The notes below the pieces were generated by a model that saw only the letters and a list, made by a program, of their open reading frames with translations, was not told the origin of the DNA and did not search any database. A stretch of DNA of 28,329 nucleotides from a virus (lineage: Duplodnaviria > Heunggongvirae > Uroviricota > Caudoviricetes), in the IMG/VR virus record IMGVR_UViG_2778261175_000004; one strand, given 5' to 3'. Below, piece after piece: positions 8,590 to 19,275 of the stretch. Numbering within the stretch: position 1 is the stretch's first letter; every line of letters starts with the position of its first letter. A program made the position numbers and the translations under genes.

Positions 8590-8883
8590 ATGAAAAAAAT
8601 GTTGTTTTCTGCCGCTCTGGCAATGCTTATTACAGGATGTGCTCAACAGACGTTTACTGTTGGAAACAAACCGACAGCAGTAACACCAAAGGAAACCATC
8701 ACCCATCATTTCTTCGTTTCGGGAATTGGACAGGAGAAAACTGTTGATGCAGCCAAAATTTGTGGCGGCGCAGAAAATGTTGTTAAAACAGAAACCCAGC
8801 AAACATTCGTAAATGGATTTCTCGGTTTTATTACTTTAGGCATTTATACTCCGCTGGAAGCGCGTGTGTATTGCTCACAATAA
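8590..8883 (+). CDS. bor: Bor lipoprotein (serum-resistance outer-membrane lipoprotein)
   Basis: From the Met at 8590: MKKMLFSAALAMLITGCAQQTFTV...LEARVYCSQ, 97 aa with lipobox LITGC; matches recalled lambda Bor / DLP12 BorD. Oriented opposite to the late genes, as in lambda. Confidence 0.9.
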   Translation: MKKMLFSAALAMLITGCAQQTFTVGNKPTAVTPKETITHHFFVSGIGQEKTVDAAKICGGAENVVKTETQQTFVNGFLGFITLGIYTPLEARVYCSQ

Positions 8884-9376: not shown

Positions 9377-9870
9377 TGCTGACCCCACAAACAGATTTCA
9401 CGCTCAATCTCACGACGAGTCATGAGACCTTTCCATTGCTTACCGCCAGCATATGTCCAGCGACGTAGCTGATCACATGCGCCTTTGATATCGCCCTGGT
9501 TTATTTTGCGAAGAAGCGTCGATGTTCTGAAATTGCCAGCACCCACGTTGTAAACGAATGAGTAAAGAGCGCCGCGCGTTGTTTCCGGTATATCGACTTT
9601 GATGTACGGGTTAATTTGTCTGGCGACAGTGGCAAGGTCTTTATTCAAGAGTGCTTTGCATTCTGCTTTGGTATACGTTTTACCGAGCATGATGTCTTTT
9701 CCTGTATGCCCGTGACATACAGTCCATACACCAACAATATCTTTGTATGGTATGTAGCTGACACCCTCCAGACCATCGTTACCACTTGAGCCAGTGATTA
9801 ACACTGATGCTATAGCAATTGCTCCGCCACCAATAGCAGCAGCAACGGCTTTTCGTAATGATGGAGGCAT
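9373..9870 (-). CDS. R: SAR (signal-anchor-release) endolysin, phage 21 R / DLP12 RrrD type lysozyme
   Basis: 165 aa, [57 protein letters not shown]...; N-terminal Gly/Ala-rich SAR domain; matches recalled RrrD. Confidence 0.9.
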
Positions 9871-10085
9871 TATTCACCTCTCGCAGCCTTGCGCTTATCT
9901 TCTTTAATCTTGAAATAAAGGTTTGTCAGGTACGTCAGCAAGCCAAATACCAAGCTACCCAGCACACCTATTGCTGCCCACTGTGAGGGCGTGACTTTAT
10001 CGAGCAGCTGTAAAAACCAGTAGCCAGCACTGCCTGCGGAGGTGCCGTAGGCAATGCCCGTTGTTAACTTATCCATGGATTTCAT
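9870..10085 (-). CDS. S: Pinholin, S21 / EssD type, with dual-start motif
   Basis: 71 aa, [31 protein letters not shown]...[13 protein letters not shown]; Met1 and Met4 give the holin/antiholin dual start; matches recalled S21/EssD. Confidence 0.9.
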
Positions 10086-10180
10086 AGCCTCACCTCCGCA
10101 AATAACGGATGGTGTACACGGTTCGGAACGAAGAGGAAAGGTATAGAAGTTACATTAGCGTAAGGCTTGAACATCTATTC

Positions 10181-10211
10181 AAAAAGAAAAACGCCAGCGA
10201 TTATTCTGGCG
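10181..10211 (-). terminator. Putative rho-independent terminator downstream of the AraC-family gene, upstream of the holin
   Basis: On the minus strand: CGCCAG-AATAATCG-CTGGCG followed by TTTTTCTTTTT (forward 10192-10211 stem-loop, A-run 10181-10191). Confidence 0.45.
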
Positions 10212-10273
10212 TAGCTGAAAGCATCATACAATTATCAAATACGAAAATTACAAAATCATTAAAACGCATCACG

Positions 10274-11005
10274 TTACATCATGTCTTTTTCTAAAAAAAG
10301 TCTTGATGAATATTGATGGGGAGGAACACCAAAATATCTTCTGAAAACACTCACAAAATATGACGTGTTTTCATAACCGCATATCTCAGCAACTTTTCCA
10401 ACAGAATATAAATTGTAGCTTAATAACCTTTCCGCCATCACCATTCGCTCTTCAAGAATTAACTTACTAAATGATAAGCCTTCGTGCTTTAATTTTCTTT
10501 TTAACAGACTTTCACTCAGATACAGTCTTGAAGATATATCACAAAGTCTCCATGCTGCAGATATATCCGTGTGAATAATAGCCTTAACTTTACTTCCTAA
10601 ACTATTAAGACATCCAAATAAAAAACTTTGCACTATTTTCTCTGAAGATAAGATAGCAAGACATGCAAGTGATATTTGATTTCTAACAAAATCCACAGTT
10701 CTGCCATCACAATTCAAGCATGCAATCAAGTTCTTTAACAATGAAAAATCTTCACATTCCACCATCAAGTATGCCGGATAAAACCTTCTTACAGAAAAAG
10801 GTGAGAGTGTGTTGCTTTTAAAGAAATCATTAACTGTTTTCTCTTCAACATCTACGATCATTACATGATCTATATTTGATGAAAAAAAATCTTTTAAATT
10901 GTAATCAATGAGAACAGCACTTCCTTTTTTAAACAAAATATCTTCTTTACCAATTCGGACATCAAACGAGTTCAACACCAAAATGATAGAACATATGTAT
11001 GGCAT
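10274..11005 (-). CDS. AraC-family transcriptional regulator (AppY-like), AT-rich cargo gene
   Basis: C-terminal AraC helix-turn-helix region (...KVAEICGYENTSYFVSVFRRYFGVPPHQY). N-terminus MPYICSIILVLNSFDV resembles recalled AppY MDYVCSVVFICQSFDL. ATG at 11005 has an AGGTGG ribosome-binding site; the track ORF begins 3 codons upstream at a GTG. Low GC relative to flanking phage genes. Confidence 0.8.
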   Translation of the reverse strand: MPYICSIILVLNSFDVRIGKEDILFKKGSAVLIDYNLKDFFSSNIDHVMIVDVEEKTVNDFFKSNTLSPFSVRRFYPAYLMVECEDFSLLKNLIACLNCDGRTVDFVRNQISLACLAILSSEKIVQSFLFGCLNSLGSKVKAIIHTDISAAWRLCDISSRLYLSESLLKRKLKHEGLSFSKLILEERMVMAERLLSYNLYSVGKVAEICGYENTSYFVSVFRRYFGVPPHQYSSRLFLEKDMM

Positions 11006-11356
11006 ATTATCCACCTGATATCATTGGGGTTACACCAGGTAAGTATAGGTGGAAAATCAATATTCGCCAGTTCAACAATAAGGAAAATCTCATTGCATCA
11101 CAAGTATAAAATTATGTATTTAACTCACAAAGACAAATTATTAAACCAATCTGTTATATTATATATAGCTGCGTGGAATCATAATATTATATATTTTGAC
11201 TGGCATGTTTACCAACTTTAAGTTGCATCTCAATGGTTTCTTCAGCGTAAACAGAGTTTTTATACAAACTGACACTCTGGGTATCATAGTGTAGTTTTTA
11301 CGATTGTAAATATCCTGCATGCAGGAACTCATCCTTTTGGATGATATCGCATACAA

Positions 11357-12316
11357 TTAATTTACCATCAGTCTTAGAGCCAGTTCGTCCGGATAGGGAT
11401 CGAAGTAATTCTGTGTAAGCAAGTAATCATTAGGATACTCACCCAGATAATGCTTCAGCAGAGTCAACGGCGCAAGAAGAGGTAATGTGCCAGAACGATA
11501 GTTAAGTATAACCTCGCTCAACTCTTTACGCTGGCGTGTACTTAAGTAGTTACTAAAATACCCCTGTATATGCATCAGCACATTCGTGTGATTTTTACGT
11601 GATGCAGGTTTTCTGAGAATCGCCATCAGCTTATCACGATACACCTCAAAGTATGATTCAAGGTCCGCCCACTCGTGTATTGCAGCCACAAATGGTCCCA
11701 TATCTTTATAGCCTGCCTGACTATGCGCCAACAACTGAAGCTTATAACGACTATGAAAAGCTAATAACTCTCTTCTTGATAATTTCTCCTTGTAAAGGTG
11801 ATTGAGCTCATGCAAAGCAAAAACTCTTTCAACAAAATTCTCACGAAGCACTGGATCATGTAATCGCCCATCCTCTTCAACCGGTAGCCAGGAAAACTTT
11901 TCCATCAAAGTGCTCGTAAATAGTCCCACTCCATCTTTACGACCTCGATTACCATTTTCATCATAGACACGCACGCGCTCCATGCCACAGCTGGGAGATT
12001 TAGCACAAACCACAAACCCCGATACATCCTTTAATTTGTCCATATAAGAACGACTAAACTCTGTCATTCTCTCTGTCACATCCTCATTCTGGTCGTGGCT
12101 GAAACACATCCGTATATTTCCTTGCGTCGAGCGCACAAGACGTAGAGCAGGACGCGGAACTGGCAGCCCTATAGCCATTTCCGGACATACTGGTCTGAAT
12201 GTTACCCATTCCACTAATTTGTCCATTAAAAAGTCAGCTCTTTTGTGACCACCATCAAAACGAACAGCAGAGCCGGCCAAACAACCGCTGATTCCAATCA
12301 CAGGTTTTTTTATCAT
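11357..12316 (-). CDS. TudS/RudS-like thio-nucleobase desulfidase: DUF523 [4Fe-4S] domain fused to DUF1722
   Basis: 319 aa. N-terminus MIKKPVIGISGCLAGSAVRFDGGHKR with further Cys in PVCPEM and AKSPSCGM fits the recalled DUF523 (TudS) cluster-binding pattern. The C-terminal half (about 170-319) fits the DUF1722 size and position seen in RudS-type fusions. Strong GGGGGAGA ribosome-binding site. Domain assignment is from memory, not a profile search. Confidence 0.65.
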   Translation of the reverse strand: MIKKPVIGISGCLAGSAVRFDGGHKRADFLMDKLVEWVTFRPVCPEMAIGLPVPRPALRLVRSTQGNIRMCFSHDQNEDVTERMTEFSRSYMDKLKDVSGFVVCAKSPSCGMERVRVYDENGNRGRKDGVGLFTSTLMEKFSWLPVEEDGRLHDPVLRENFVERVFALHELNHLYKEKLSRRELLAFHSRYKLQLLAHSQAGYKDMGPFVAAIHEWADLESYFEVYRDKLMAILRKPASRKNHTNVLMHIQGYFSNYLSTRQRKELSEVILNYRSGTLPLLAPLTLLKHYLGEYPNDYLLTQNYFDPYPDELALRLMVN

Positions 12317-12508
12317 ATTCTCCCCCTTGACTAATTCATTAACACATAAACTGTGTAGTGCACGGAATAAATTGCCTTTCTGGCGTCATCACTGACAATT
12401 TTTCTGTTATAGACTATTCCTAATATAGTATGAAAGTTCTTTAAGTGATCGGTCGTAATCATCTATCTTTCATACTTACTCTCAACTATCAAAAGTACAG
12501 GATTTATT

Positions 12509-13033
12509 ATGAAGTTATGGCCTGTGTTGACTGGCATTGCACTCTCTTTCACTCTTATAGCATGTAAGGCCCCGACACCACCTAAAGGTGTGCAGCCGAT
12601 TACAAATTTTGACGCCAACCGCTACCTCGGAAAATGGTATGAAATAGCTCGCCTCGAGAACCGGTTCGAACGTGGTCTGGAACAGGTCAGCGCTACCTAT
12701 GGAAAACGGAACGACGGAGGGATTCGTGTACTTAACCGTGGATACGATCCAACGAAAAATAAATGGAGCGAGAGCGAAGGTAAAGCATACTTTACTGGAG
12801 ATACTAAAACTGCAGCGTTGAAGGTTTCGTTTTTTGGCCCCTTCTATGGTGGCTATAATGTAATCAAACTGGATGATGAGTATAAGTATGCTCTTGTCAG
12901 TGGTCCGAACAGAGAATACCTATGGATTCTGGCAAGGACCCCAACTATTCCAGATAAAGTAAAAGCAGACTATGTGCGAACCGCTCAAAAGTTGGGATTC
13001 AATGTCAATGAATTATTATGGGTTAAACAATAA
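12509..13033 (+). CDS. Bacterial lipocalin Blc-type outer-membrane lipoprotein (divergent homolog)
   Basis: 174 aa with lipobox FTLIAC. Blocks NFDANRYLGKWYEIARLENRFERGLE, SEGKAYFTG, AALKVSFFGPFYGGYNVI and YLWILARTPTI closely parallel recalled E. coli Blc, but with many substitutions (roughly 60-65 percent identity by eye). Confidence 0.85.
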   Translation: MKLWPVLTGIALSFTLIACKAPTPPKGVQPITNFDANRYLGKWYEIARLENRFERGLEQVSATYGKRNDGGIRVLNRGYDPTKNKWSESEGKAYFTGDTKTAALKVSFFGPFYGGYNVIKLDDEYKYALVSGPNREYLWILARTPTIPDKVKADYVRTAQKLGFNVNELLWVKQ

Positions 13034-13061
13034 AATCCCTACCCGAAATAATACTTATTAG

Positions 13062-13088
13062 AAAAAAACCAGCCTTTGGGGAGGCTGG
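13062..13088 (-). terminator. Putative late-leader terminator (tR'-like), also placed to terminate the convergent blc-like transcript
   Basis: Stem CCAGCCT / AGGCTGG (13069-13075 / 13082-13088) with loop TTGGGG; on the minus strand it is followed by a T7 run (forward A7 at 13062-13068). Lies about 100-125 nt downstream of the Q stop, as expected for the lambda-type 6S leader transcript. Confidence 0.5.
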
Positions 13089-13188
13089 CTAAATCAGGAA
13101 ACAAGCTGTTATATGATAATAACTACGTTGCGATTCCAACATTTAAAATGTTAGACTAATGAGAATCAGACAGCAACTTTTCCTTTAA

Positions 13189-13566
13189 TTATTTCGAACA
13201 ATCAGCATCCATCTCCAATCGGAGATCCAACACCATCAGCATACCCTCCACTACGCCCTCAGCTTTCTGGAGCATCCTGCCAACCCAACAATCAGATCGC
13301 CCATGCTTACGTGCAAGCGCCATAAAAGTCATGCCGCCGACATAATAGTCCACCAATAAATCATGCAAATCGCTGTTGTTCTTTTTCAGACGGGCCATGC
13401 ACCCGCAAATGATCATCGCGTCATCGTCACAACATTGCGGGCGAGATTTTACTTTTGAAGGAATTAATCCCTTAAAACCGGCGGCAATGGACGACCAGGT
13501 CACATCTTCATGATTATTAGCCGCCCACGCTCCCCAACGCTCAAGAACCATCTGAATATCACGCAT
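13189..13566 (-). CDS. Q: Late-gene antiterminator Q (QuuD-like)
   Basis: From the Met at 13566: [60 protein letters not shown]...; Cys-rich Zn motif; matches recalled DLP12 QuuD over most of its length. Confidence 0.8.
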
Positions 13567-13648
13567 CAACTTACTCCACAAAACTCAGACCAGAACGCCA
13601 ATTACAAGCAAAAATCAACAAAACAGTATTAGTTGATTGTTATCTCTG

Positions 13649-15271: not shown

Positions 15272-16069
15272 TTACTCTCTGGAAGCTTTTCTTATCTCTC
15301 TTGGTGTTATATTAAAACGATTATGAAATCTTTCAGTAAAACGAGAAGGACACTTATAACCATTTTCTCTGGCAATCTCGCTTATAGGTTTTACCGTCGT
15401 TTGTATAGCAGACAACGCATTATTTAACCTCACATCGTCCAGTATACTTTGGAAACTTACCCCCTCGCTTGCTAGACGGCGATGTAATGTAGAAACAGAA
15501 ATGTAGAGATATCGAGCAACCTTGTTTGCTGTCCATTTTGTGCCGGGTTCGGATAGCAGCAGGTTATAACAACGACTTATCAATGATTGTTTACTATATG
15601 ATAAAAGTAAATGATTAACATGATTCACTCCTAACGAAAGTAGAACGCCCATTGCTAAGTGCTCCTGAATTTTAGTTGAGAAGCCTCGGGAAACAGATGT
15701 TTTTAGTTGCTCCCAACAATATATTAACTCAGGATTCTGAGGTAAAAAGAAACTTGTTTTGTTACGTATTTGATCAGTTACCGTATAAAGTTTTTGGAAA
15801 CTCTCAATTAAATCAATGGGTAAGTAAAGCATTTCTGCAAGATAAAGCCCTGCTTCAGGATAATTCTCAATATAAAATTCATAACCACAAGGAAATAATA
15901 TTATTTGATTATTATCAACAGTTAAAGTATGCGTCTCCCAATTGATAACTTTCTTTCCCTGACGGATACGACACAAAGCTGGCATAAGAGGCTTAACCCT
16001 ATGAATCTCATGATGTTTATGCATCCGTATTTCTTCGATCTTTAAGTTAGTCTTACCTCTTGCCAGCAT
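15272..16069 (-). CDS. ybcM: AraC-family transcriptional regulator YbcM-like
   Basis: 265 aa; C-terminal AraC helix-turn-helix (...[42 protein letters not shown]...). Matches DLP12 YbcM in position and length. Confidence 0.8.
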
Positions 16070-16078
16070 ACTCTCACC

Positions 16079-16630
16079 CTACTTTATCTCATAAACTGGT
16101 GTTATCTCAGCGGTTGCGATTTTATTAGCATTAAGCATATAACCAACTAACGCTCCGCTGGAGTTAGAATCTACAGGAATCTTTTCAGTTTTTAGAGCCC
16201 ATACTTTAAACTGGTAATGATGTGGTTTATCTCCTTTAGGAGGACACGCGCCACCAAACCCAGCATAGCCAAAATCATTTCGGCCTTGAACAGCACCAGT
16301 CGGCAGTTTTGTTCCATCACGTCTCCCTGCATCAACGGGCAAATATGTTATTGTTGCTGGAATATTAACAACAGTCCAATGCCACCAACCACTGCCTGTA
16401 GGTGCATCTGGATCATATACAGTTACGGCAAAGCTTTTGGTACCTTCAGGAACACCAGACCAGGTTAATGAGGGCGATGTATTACCACCTTCACACCCAA
16501 ATCCAGAAAAGACATGAGACGTTGTAAGTTGCTCTCCTGTTTTTATTTCATTACTAGTGACCTGAAATGCTGCAGCCTGCGCAGAAAATGTTATGAATGC
16601 CAATACAGTTGAAACGATAAGTGTTTTCAT
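16079..16630 (-). CDS. ybcL: Periplasmic phosphatidylethanolamine-binding protein (PEBP / Raf kinase inhibitor-like) YbcL-like
   Basis: 183 aa with signal peptide MKTLIVSTVLAFITFSAQA; PEBP motifs (...YDPDAPTGSGWWHW...HHYQFKVWAL...). Confidence 0.85.
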   Translation of the reverse strand: MKTLIVSTVLAFITFSAQAAAFQVTSNEIKTGEQLTTSHVFSGFGCEGGNTSPSLTWSGVPEGTKSFAVTVYDPDAPTGSGWWHWTVVNIPATITYLPVDAGRRDGTKLPTGAVQGRNDFGYAGFGGACPPKGDKPHHYQFKVWALKTEKIPVDSNSSGALVGYMLNANKIATAEITPVYEIK

Positions 16631-16846
16631 AAAAACCTCTTTGTTATGACCTATCGTTATTTTATTTGATATTCCTTTATCTCATTATGCATAAAGGCGC
16701 AATTTTTATGCAAAAGCAATCACAATTGTACCCCCAACCCAATTATTTGCCACAATATACACAAAGCACATTGATACTATCTAAAAACTCTGCTTTATTA
16801 TTAGTAATACCTACGAAAGTCGGTGTTATTTTTTAACCTATCATTC

Positions 16847-16896
16847 AAAATACGTGACATACACCATTTTGCTCATAATAATTTGTCACGTATTTT
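16847..16896. repeat. Perfect 13-bp inverted repeat AAAATACGTGACA / TGTCACGTATTTT with a 24-bp spacer, in the ybcK-ybcL intergenic region
   Basis: Direct reading: 16847-16859 and 16884-16896 are exact reverse complements. Confidence 0.9.
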
Positions 16897-17094
16897 CAGT
16901 ATTTGAATCTGCGACCAAGAGTTCTCACCTGACAAATGATTAAGATTGTATAGCTCATTTACTACCCCAATACAGCCGTACAAAACTCGCTTGTGGGAGC
17001 AAACAAAGTAATTACCCATTAAGTTTCGTCAAAGATAATTAATTCTGTCTTGCACTTTATCACCATAGCATAACTTAAAATCCGAGATCATTAT

Positions 17095-18621
17095 TTAGAA
17101 ATAAATCTCACCATCAACCATATATTTGAGAGCACTTATCGCCTGCTGGGCGGATATTACTTTCATTAAAGGATAGTGTTTAAAAACAATGCCATTCATA
17201 AAATAAATATCACAGGTTTTATTATCCGTATTAATTATGATTTTTTCGAATGTTTTATAGGCAAGTGTACGGCATAACTCTCGTCCATTTTTACTGGTTA
17301 AGTCAATAGCATAAAAATCACTGAATGAATTTACACCTTTACTCTTCAAAGTTTTCAATGATACCGAAGCCCTTCGTAATTCCTTATCTAATAGTCTTAT
17401 TTTCTCTGCTATAGCGGTAACTTCAGGCGCGACAGACAATGCAACGATTAAATTATTAATTTTCATCTGAAGCTCAATAATTTTTAACTCTAAAGTTTCA
17501 TTAGCATCTTTCTTGTTTTCAACTGGTTGAATTTTGCTACAATTAAAAAGCAATTCATTAATGATATTATAATCAACCAAATCTCTTTTTATTGATGGCC
17601 TGTCACATCGATGTAATCTTCTCATCGGACAAACATAATAGCCATGCAAACTTCCAGATACCGCATGAACAATCATGGTATTACCACAAGCCTCACACTT
17701 CATAACTGTTCGAAGTAGATTTATTAGCATAGGATTCTTGCTACTATTGCTAATACCAAAAGGTGCCAACCGAATTTCCTGTACAGCGTAAAACAAATCA
17801 TCTGATATGACTCTGGGATAATAGCCAGCGATTTCACTTATCCCTTTCCCTCTTGCACGATATGAAGGTACGCATATACCTATCAGAGCTTTATTCGCTA
17901 ATAATTTTTCAATTACAGAAGGTCCCCATGCACTTTCTTTTCCTGAGAAATTCTTTACAGCATGATCATTTAAATACTTGGCTATTGCATTCAATGAGCG
18001 CCTTTCCATCCTGAGTTTAAAAATTAGCTCAATAGTTTTCACCCTGTCGGGGTCTGGAACAAAAGCCGTTCTTTTGTCATCTAAGGAGAGCCATCTCGGA
18101 CAAGACGCCGTCATAATCGTACCTGATTCCAGTGCATCCTGCCGTTTTTTCTTCCATGATAATTTAACCCGACTTGACTTTATCTCGCTTTCTTCATTTG
18201 CCCTTTGTGCTATAAGTATGGCTTTTATTAATGAATATGGCTCATTCAAAGAGTCAATATTATAGACTGTATTGTCGCAAAGAGTTATAACATCAATACC
18301 GTGATTCAAAATCAATTTCAGACGTTCAATCGCTTCACCGACTTTTTCTCTTGAAAGTCTGTCCAGACTTTCAACTAACAATGTAGTTCCTGGCAATATA
18401 TAACCATGCTCTATAGCATCTAAAAATTCCGAAAAAGCTCCTGATTGTGCATGCTTTCCTTTGAATGCACTTAATCCTAAATCTTCATATGTTATGGTAT
18501 CAAGATAATAATCACTATTTACCTTTAACCATTCAGCAATAAGTCTTCTCTGTCGGTTTAATGAGTCACCAGACATCTGACCTGGTGATGAAAATCGCAT
18601 ATATGCTATGGCTTTTTTCAT
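17095..18621 (-). CDS. ybcK: Large serine recombinase (resolvase/invertase-type N-terminal catalytic domain plus large C-terminal domain), YbcK-like
   Basis: 508 aa. N-terminus MKKAIAYMRFSSPGQMSGDSLNRQRR... has the serine-recombinase catalytic motif (Y-x-R-x-S-S). C-terminal Cys cluster (CEACGNTMIVH...YYVCPMRRLHRC) is typical of large serine recombinases. Confidence 0.85.
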   Translation of the reverse strand: MKKAIAYMRFSSPGQMSGDSLNRQRRLIAEWLKVNSDYYLDTITYEDLGLSAFKGKHAQSGAFSEFLDAIEHGYILPGTTLLVESLDRLSREKVGEAIERLKLILNHGIDVITLCDNTVYNIDSLNEPYSLIKAILIAQRANEESEIKSSRVKLSWKKKRQDALESGTIMTASCPRWLSLDDKRTAFVPDPDRVKTIELIFKLRMERRSLNAIAKYLNDHAVKNFSGKESAWGPSVIEKLLANKALIGICVPSYRARGKGISEIAGYYPRVISDDLFYAVQEIRLAPFGISNSSKNPMLINLLRTVMKCEACGNTMIVHAVSGSLHGYYVCPMRRLHRCDRPSIKRDLVDYNIINELLFNCSKIQPVENKKDANETLELKIIELQMKINNLIVALSVAPEVTAIAEKIRLLDKELRRASVSLKTLKSKGVNSFSDFYAIDLTSKNGRELCRTLAYKTFEKIIINTDNKTCDIYFMNGIVFKHYPLMKVISAQQAISALKYMVDGEIYF

Positions 18622-18800
18622 GGTGACACCTGCTAACGTATGCTTTTATAAACCTTAGTGGTGGGATATAATTTTTGTTTAATTTTTATTTAAAAAGACA
18701 ATTAAGGTCACATTATCTTGAATATACAACAATAATCGTATTGCAATTTTCTTACGCCATAATCTTGAAAGCACAAAAGAATACATAAAAAATAAAGACA

Positions 18801-18845
18801 TTAACAAAAAGCATAAAACGAGGCTCATATAAATATAAGAGCCTC
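18801..18845 (-). terminator. Putative terminator downstream of emrE
   Basis: Stem GAGGCTC / GAGCCTC (18820-18826 / 18839-18845) with a 12-nt AT loop, followed on the minus strand by GTTTTATGCTTTTTG. The long loop makes this only moderately convincing. Confidence 0.35.
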
Positions 18846-18875
18846 CATATTTTAGTCGTTTAGAAACAAATTATT

Positions 18876-19211
18876 TTAATGTGGTGTGCTTCGTGACAAT
18901 AAATTAATAACCAACACACCGGCACAAATCAACATCATGCCTATAATAGCTGGCAGGTCCAGCCGTTGGTCGAAAAGTCCCCATGACAGTAAGCTAATCA
19001 GGACAATACCGACTCCTGACCAGATAGCATAAGCAATCCCTGTAGGAATATAAGCCAGCGTCTGAGCTAATAACCAGAATGATGCACAATAACAAATAAT
19101 TGTACCAACAGATGGCCATAACCGTGTAAAACCTTCTGAAAACTTCATTAAGGTTGTACCAATGACCTCTGCAAGTATTGCACCACCAAGATAAATATAA
19201 GGGTTCATAGC
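18876..19211 (-). CDS. emrE: Small multidrug resistance efflux transporter EmrE
   Basis: From the internal Met: MNPYIYLGGAILAEVIGTTLMKFSEGFTRLWPSVGTIICYCASFWLLAQTLAYIPTGIAYAIWSGVGIVLISLLSWG..., 110 aa; matches recalled E. coli EmrE. Confidence 0.95.
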   Translation of the reverse strand, partial: AMNPYIYLGGAILAEVIGTTLMKFSEGFTRLWPSVGTIICYCASFWLLAQTLAYIPTGIAYAIWSGVGIVLISLLSWGLFDQRLDLPAIIGMMLICAGVLVINLLSRSTPH

Positions 19212-19275
19212 ATATTCTTTCCTGTTCAAACTGGAGAGAATTGTACTACAGTTTGAACTCAACTCACCTGTTTCA

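Follow-up and report, generated by a model that had tools for sequence, protein, structure and literature searches.

The lipocalin gene within its prophage

The window analysed here, a stretch of 28,329 nucleotides taken at its full length, is a DLP12/lambda-like Escherichia coli prophage in which a Blc-type lipocalin gene runs against the late genes (Table 1). Rightward of the lipocalin lie the genes for Q, YlcG, RusA, YbcO, NinE and YbcN, then YbcM and YbcL; a serine recombinase and EmrE follow further right, with P, O, a cI-like repressor, RecT/YqaJ and the integrase. Leftward stand RudS, an AraC/YdeO-like regulator, the holin essD, the lysozyme rrrD and the spanin rzpD, beyond which come Bor/Iss (+ strand), terminase and head genes. 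The lipocalin, RudS and the AraC-like regulator form a three-gene accessory cassette that occupies the Q-to-holin slot, and these 3.1 kb lie in the path of late transcripts to essD. The cassette has a GC content of 38.5% against 47.8% for the window, and the lipocalin alone one of 44%, a departure in base composition of the kind that marks a moron.

Table 1. Features in and around the Q-to-holin slot (positions are those of the window)
Feature	Positions	Strand	Details
Holin essD	9870-10085	-	First lysis gene; placed by a coordinate offset of 1684
AraC-family regulator, YdeO/GadX-like	10274-11005	-	32% GC; completes the three-gene cassette
RudS (TudS desulfidase + DUF1722)	11357-12316	-	Full fusion; annotated as 'YbgA family'
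Divergent intergenic region	12317-12508		192 bp, 33% GC
Alternative candidate -10, TATAGT	12424-12429	+	Lies in the best-conserved intergenic block (AATATAGTATGAA); chromosomal relatives have TATACT
Candidate -10, CATACT (TCATACTTA)	12471-12476	+	32 nt before the ATG; aligns with CTACACTTA of Enterobacter and Leclercia
Lipocalin CDS	12509-13033	+	Blc subfamily, placed as a clade A paralog; ATG start, 174 aa, stop included
Predicted lipoprotein signal peptide	12509-12565	+	Ends in lipobox L16-I17-A18-C19; Cys codon 12563-12565
Intrinsic terminator, late strand	13060-13090	-	Hairpin 13067-13090; 9-bp stem (5 G-C), 6-nt loop, T7
Candidate pR'-like late promoter	13148-13176	-	TTGCTG-17-TAACAT, between Q and the hairpin; consensus-level match
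Antiterminator Q (QuuD-like)	13189-13581	-	Pfam Phage_antitermQ, 2.5e-51; downstream of the lipocalin, convergent; also delimited as 13189-13566
Second candidate late promoter	13217-13188	-	

The lipocalin reading frame is real and intact. An AGGA Shine-Dalgarno sequence (12499-12502) stands 6 nt 5' of its ATG, and the product matches Pfam Lipocalin_2 (PF08212, E=7e-44) as well as the NCBIfam Blc subfamily model NF007786, the latter over its full length (residues 1-174) with 316 bits where the curated cutoff is 267, which makes it a member of that subfamily. The family phrog_2809, listed in PHROG as of function unknown, also matches it full length (E=6e-99), and the protein is identical to RefSeq WP_000780581.1, a 'lipocalin family protein' annotated in strain CE10. 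Crystal structures of E. coli Blc in the PDB match across the whole mature domain (E ~1e-69), and the lipocalin fold and conserved calyx residues can be recognised from these alignments. The N-terminus reads MKLWPVLTGIALSFTLIA-C19-K, and the lipobox L-I-A-C19, which the preliminary description had reported and on whose absence it would have fallen, has a counterpart in 119 of the 120 nearest homologues, most often LVAC with K after it. The +2 residue rule of Lol sorting is well established. With Lys rather than Asp at +2, a residue compatible with the outer membrane next to the lipobox Cys, the outer membrane is the predicted Lol destination of the protein.

As was originally described, the lipocalin runs opposite to late transcription and converges on a terminator next to Q, its reading frame lying on the + strand and Q on the - strand. 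This arrangement is ordinary for the Q-to-holin slot, because in the DLP12 prophage of K-12 the porin gene nmpC likewise lies between quuD and essD, antisense to the late operon and converging on quuD. At least 80% of the queried stretch (9870-13600) occurs in 980 genomes, while many of the sampled records without it, K-12 included, hold a porin gene (nmpC/ompC-like) between quuD and essD. The lipocalin thus sits in a dispensable, replaceable insert between phage modules, as a moron does, with a porin gene in equivalent Q/essD flanks. The stx genes of Stx phages occupy this slot too. With nmpC, and with lambda bor, the lipocalin shares the character of an envelope-protein moron antisense to late transcription, and with nmpC also its place in the slot and its convergence on the 3' end of Q; it differs in that nmpC is a porin and a single gene, whereas the lipocalin belongs to a three-gene cassette.

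Several neighbouring genes deserve mention in their own right. The best NCBIfam matches of the AraC-family regulator are YdeO and GadX, both below cutoff, and it has diverged from its counterpart in phage 1H12 much more than its neighbours have (82% amino acid identity, against 97% for the lipocalin); we take it to resemble the prophage-encoded acid-resistance regulators PatE, PsrA and PsrB. The prophage has a second moron for an envelope lipoprotein: flanked by spanin and terminase genes and opposite in direction to the late genes, it encodes a Bor/Iss serum-resistance lipoprotein (8590-8883, + strand). The early-right region carries a further accessory block (15272-19262, - strand) of YbcM (AraC-like), YbcL (Raf-kinase-inhibitor-like), a serine recombinase and an EmrE-type SMR efflux pump, the recombinase being intact here at 508 aa and truncated by an IS3 element in strain CE10.

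The preliminary description had regarded a lipocalin as unusual cargo at such a site, a view that does not survive comparison with existing records: about 21% of complete E. coli genomes carry it, as do 12 deposited phage genomes, PHROG has a family for it (2809), and blc was described as a moron in more than 50% of 19 lambda-like infant-gut coliphages (Mathieu et al. 2020, PMC6969025). It is, in short, a known accessory gene of lambda-like coliphages that has already been annotated and published. Eleven of the 12 phage genomes annotate 'Lipocalin Blc'; these are 1H12 and the Lambda_ev/Lambda_2E9 series, at 93% DNA identity, while the copy of IdasGreatGrand is 99% identical. The gene is carried by isolated phages (IdasGreatGrand and 1H12/Lambda_ev), and its carriage is compatible with lytic growth. 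The 'Lipocalin Blc' of 1H12/Lambda_ev (H3V29_gp65; phrog_2809) is the same gene, 97% identical in amino acids and set in the same order of Q, lipocalin, RudS, AraC-like regulator and holin, the differences being a DNA divergence of about 7% and the 82% identity of the AraC-like neighbour. The RudS of the window is 93% identical to RudS_vir of 1H12 (H3V29_gp66), which has been cloned and lowers tRNA 4-thiouridine in vivo (PMC11417400). E. coli itself is without RudS (PMC11417400), so that an activity absent from the host is supplied by this prophage.

Two further records bear on distribution. The temperate Morganella phage IME1369_01 also has a Blc-like lipoprotein gene adjoining its lysis genes (L088, 3965-4480), but the protein is only 54% identical, the phage is unrelated and the acquisition independent, and the gene runs in the direction of the late genes, in the interval that separates the lysis genes from the small terminase subunit. 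A contig of 2113 bp (JARKOR010000135.1) binned as 'Candidatus Nanosynbacter sp.' holds Q, the lipocalin and a RudS fragment at 99-100% identity to this prophage, and is almost certainly mis-binned or a contaminant in that MAG.

A second Blc clade and the probable origin of the phage gene

Relative to K-12 Blc (b4149), the prophage lipocalin aligns without gaps over 174 aa, with 60% of the residues identical and 79% scored as positives. Of 5426 complete E. coli genomes, 5425 have core blc, while the lipocalin with its flanks occurs at prophage sites in 1146 (~21%), its copies almost all chromosomal and numbering one to four per genome. Given these counts and the level of identity, the gene is an additional, horizontally acquired paralog beside core blc, as first proposed. 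Its location between Q and the holin of a prophage, and its position in the tree described below, both set it outside core blc. That it might be an artefact, a duplicate of host chromosomal blc created by recombination or assembly, is practically inconceivable, and we rejected it: near-identity to the host protein is excluded by the pairwise alignment at just 60%, and isolated phages share the identical arrangement with 1146 complete genomes. The likeness to E. coli Blc (PDB 1QWD, 2ACO, 3MBT) nonetheless extends to subfamily HMM, length, lipobox and the GxWYEI motif. It extends also to the ligand pocket, where 16 of the 17 residues readable from a published list of Blc heme/vaccenate pocket residues (PMC8177097) are identical, the exception being K77R. 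The differences lie in sequence, the two proteins falling in different well-supported clades, and in place, the core gene standing at the frd-ampC-blc-sugE locus and the other in a prophage; the latter is carried by about 21% of strains instead of all.

The closest relatives in a database search formed a prophage cluster at 97% identity or more, followed by unnamed metagenomic proteins at 82% and by proteins of Cedecea, Scandinavium, Pantoea, Klebsiella and others at 75-80%. A scan of one genome per species returned two levels of similarity: 78-81% in Enterobacter spp., Leclercia, Huaxiibacter, Buttiauxella and Kosakonia, and ~57-62% for proteins encoded at frd-(ampC)-blc-gdx in Salmonella, Citrobacter, Buttiauxella and others. 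Both types are present in Buttiauxella izardii. The tree built by neighbour joining places them in separate groups, with split support (bootstrap values from a custom split count) of 98.5% for the core-blc clade and 94.5% for the other, termed here clade A, which includes the phage proteins as a clade of their own (100%) and whose remaining members are 71-82% identical to the phage lipocalin. The Enterobacterales thus hold two Blc clades, the phage copy falling in the one coupled on chromosomes to RudS and a MerR-type regulator.

On clade A chromosomes the lipocalin gene is divergent from an MlrA-like MerR regulator, which is followed by a gene for a periplasmic transthyretin-like (hydroxyisourate-hydrolase-like) protein and by RudS. 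The RudS proteins encoded there are 70-73% identical to that of the phage. No RudS/MerR/CFA-synthase cluster was found around the more distant lipocalins (loci L035-L086), and the linkage with RudS is, as far as these loci indicate, confined to clade A of the Enterobacterales. Chromosomal clade A lipocalins of Enterobacter, Leclercia, Buttiauxella, Raoultella and Cedecea resemble the phage gene in identity (74-82%), in a homologous 5' region and in their divergence from a unit containing RudS; they differ in having the MlrA-like regulator, and usually the transthyretin-like gene, between lipocalin and RudS, where the phage lacks both.

The 192-bp intergenic region of the phage offers a record of how this difference may have arisen. 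On the left it matches sequence 5' of chromosomal RudS genes, and over the rightmost ~100 bp sequence 5' of chromosomal clade A lipocalin genes, so that the region resembles a scar left when the MerR-like and transthyretin-like genes were deleted. Because both flanks of the missing segment are represented in it, RudS and the lipocalin were apparently captured together, and ~1.3 kb with the regulator and the transthyretin-like gene was apparently deleted afterwards. The proposed source is a chromosomal locus of the form RudS-(transthyretin-like)-MerR/MlrA-like and, divergently, lipocalin, in an Enterobacter/Leclercia-like bacterium; the phage would have lost the regulator along the way.

The phylogeny of Blc homologues, suggested at the outset as a route to the donor lineage, answers in part. 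The clade A, Enterobacter/Leclercia-like placement stands, but the donor itself appears to lie outside the genomes sampled: the nearest relative among them is 82% identical, and the GC content of chromosomal clade A relatives is 51-60% against 44% for the phage lipocalin.

In Cedecea lapagei (L006, 97-4926) the lipocalin and MlrA-like regulator adjoin a cluster of SnoaL, SDR, amine-oxidase, DUF1365, CFA-synthase-like and DUF2878 genes. The cluster may belong to a type that, in other bacteria, has been connected with furan fatty-acid synthesis and with responses to light or singlet oxygen.

Transcription signals on the two strands

The hairpin beyond the 3' end of the lipocalin had been placed at 13062-13088 and proposed to end both of the transcripts that converge on it. 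We found it at 13067-13090, and the proposal fails for the + strand. The T7 tract follows the stem solely on the - strand; on the + strand an A7 tract precedes the stem and CTAAATC comes after it, the hairpin there running into CUAAAUCAGG with no U-tract. The pairing of an A-tract 5' with a U-tract 3' on both strands, which characterises a bidirectional intrinsic terminator, is accordingly not seen. Folding gave -19.1 kcal/mol for the - strand (z = -2.4), whereas the + strand folded no better than its shuffles (z = -1.1). The hairpin and its T-run are conserved in 1H12 and IdasGreatGrand, and the element is consistent with a late terminator of the tR' type. These features give no support to efficient termination of lipocalin transcription at this hairpin, and no clear + strand terminator for the lipocalin emerged from the hairpin search or from folding against shuffles. 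Of the two candidate late promoters, the pR'-like one would give a leader of about 79 nt that ends at the terminator. An Rfam scan of the whole window at gathering thresholds returned no match, so no known RNA element explains either the leader or the hairpin.

A consensus scan found no canonical sigma-70 promoter on the + strand of the intergenic region, and a relaxed scan yielded weak candidates only. The CATACT candidate is degenerate at -13/-12 in the phage copy. Its counterpart CTACACTTA lies ~30 nt before the ATG of chromosomal clade A genes, and the motif stands 27 nt upstream of K-12 blc, so that the core gene has a -10 motif of this type and the prophage lipocalin a degenerate version of it. 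K-12 blc is sigma-S dependent. The TATAGT alternative may instead be a relic of the promoter or operator of the lost MerR gene. In lysogens the lipocalin would be expressed from a promoter of its own, opposite to late transcription. Upon induction, Q-modified polymerase would read past the tR'-like terminator and proceed antisense across the lipocalin into RudS, the regulator and the lysis genes.

Selection and the proposed role of the lipocalin in lysogens

Between the window and 1H12 the lipocalin gene shows 21 synonymous and 5 non-synonymous differences (dN/dS = 0.06), and RudS has a dN/dS of 0.10; these ratios were restricted to the comparison with 1H12, as synonymous sites are saturated relative to the chromosomal relatives. 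Disrupted copies are also common: a truncated variant of 158 aa has 668 member sequences, a 206-aa fusion occurs too (P0005, P0003), and IS3 and IS1 elements are inserted inside the cassette in several genomes (H33, H38-H40, H42). The cargo of the cassette is thus often inactivated. Where intact, the lipocalin is under purifying selection, yet it is dispensable, given how common disrupted copies are. These observations pull in opposite directions on whether the gene is a functionless passenger, dragged in with RudS and decaying since the loss of its regulator and promoter. Decay of this sort would account for promoter-like elements that are degenerate relative to those of chromosomal relatives, for the truncated and IS-disrupted copies and for a GC content that has drifted down to 44%. 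We consider it improbable in view of the strength of purifying selection, the intact reading frame with its conserved lipobox and pocket, and retention of the gene across lineages that have diverged by ~7% in DNA.

A role in the phage's own cycle, whether in lysis timing (as initially suggested), in spanin action or outer-membrane disruption, or in superinfection exclusion through a change in the outer membrane, strikes us as more improbable still. The lipocalin does adjoin the lysis cassette, the unrelated Morganella phage IME1369_01 has a Blc lipocalin between lysis genes and terminase, and many lambda morons encode membrane proteins (PMC6969025). However, a gene antisense to late transcription should be expressed less, not more, during lytic growth, and it is this orientation, together with the interchangeability of the slot with a porin gene and the frequency of disrupted copies, that makes such a role unlikely; the protein, moreover, has no holin, spanin or exclusion motif.

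We consider it probable that the lipocalin is instead an outer-membrane-anchored, periplasm-facing, Blc-like ligand binder serving the lysogen. As a lysogenic-conversion or 'moron' gene of the three-gene cassette in the Q-to-holin slot, it would be exported by Sec and lipidated at Cys19, and its Blc-like calyx would bind hydrophobic molecules of the envelope, the ligands of E. coli Blc being lysophospholipids, fatty acids and porphyrins. The benefit would fall to the lysogen under envelope stress and not to the lytic cycle of the phage.

A more specific role is raised by the chromosomal neighbourhood of clade A. RudS and the lipocalin may constitute a module against near-UV or photo-oxidative stress, in which RudS removes the UVA-sensitive 4-thiouridine of tRNA while photosensitising porphyrins, or fatty acids that have been oxidised or modified, would be sequestered in the envelope by the lipocalin; the phage would in this way shield lysogens from light encountered outside the gut. 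RudS, a gene found in light-responsive operons, is reported to ease substantially the temporary arrest of growth that UVA causes in E. coli (PMC11417400), and on clade A chromosomes the lipocalin is linked both to RudS and to an MlrA/CarH-like MerR regulator. E. coli Blc binds hematoporphyrin with a sub-nM Kd (PMC8177097), and the ligand pocket is conserved in the prophage protein. The Cedecea lipocalin lies beside SDR, amine-oxidase, DUF1365 and CFA-synthase-like genes, a cluster that may be a candidate equivalent of UfaM, the furan-fatty-acid synthase among light-inducible genes of Pseudomonas (PMC9758184). Set against this, the phage lacks the regulator through which light would exert control, the more distant lipocalin loci are without such synteny, and the link may be plain hitch-hiking of adjacent genes. 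On balance we hold the photo-oxidative module to be possible but rather unlikely. Its evolutionary corollary, that the two genes are a phage-mobilised remnant of a light or photo-oxidative locus under MerR-family (MlrA/LitR-like) control and jointly shield lysogens from near-UV, is offered as tentatively; candidate ligands of the lipocalin would then be photosensitising tetrapyrroles and oxidised or furan-type fatty acids of the envelope.

The presence of a common, published gene in a standard position adds little in itself. The one new point, of modest value, concerns its origin: the lipocalin and the adjacent RudS gene seem to have been acquired together from a stress locus in bacteria resembling Enterobacter. 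The combination of RudS, lipocalin and YdeO/GadX-like regulator suggests a stress-tolerance cassette, joining UVA/tRNA protection to an envelope lipocalin, which could affect the survival outside the host of about one fifth of E. coli strains and which provides a genetic handle on what Blc-type lipocalins do. Should the photo-oxidative interpretation prove true, the function of these lipocalins would gain a concrete and testable physiological context.
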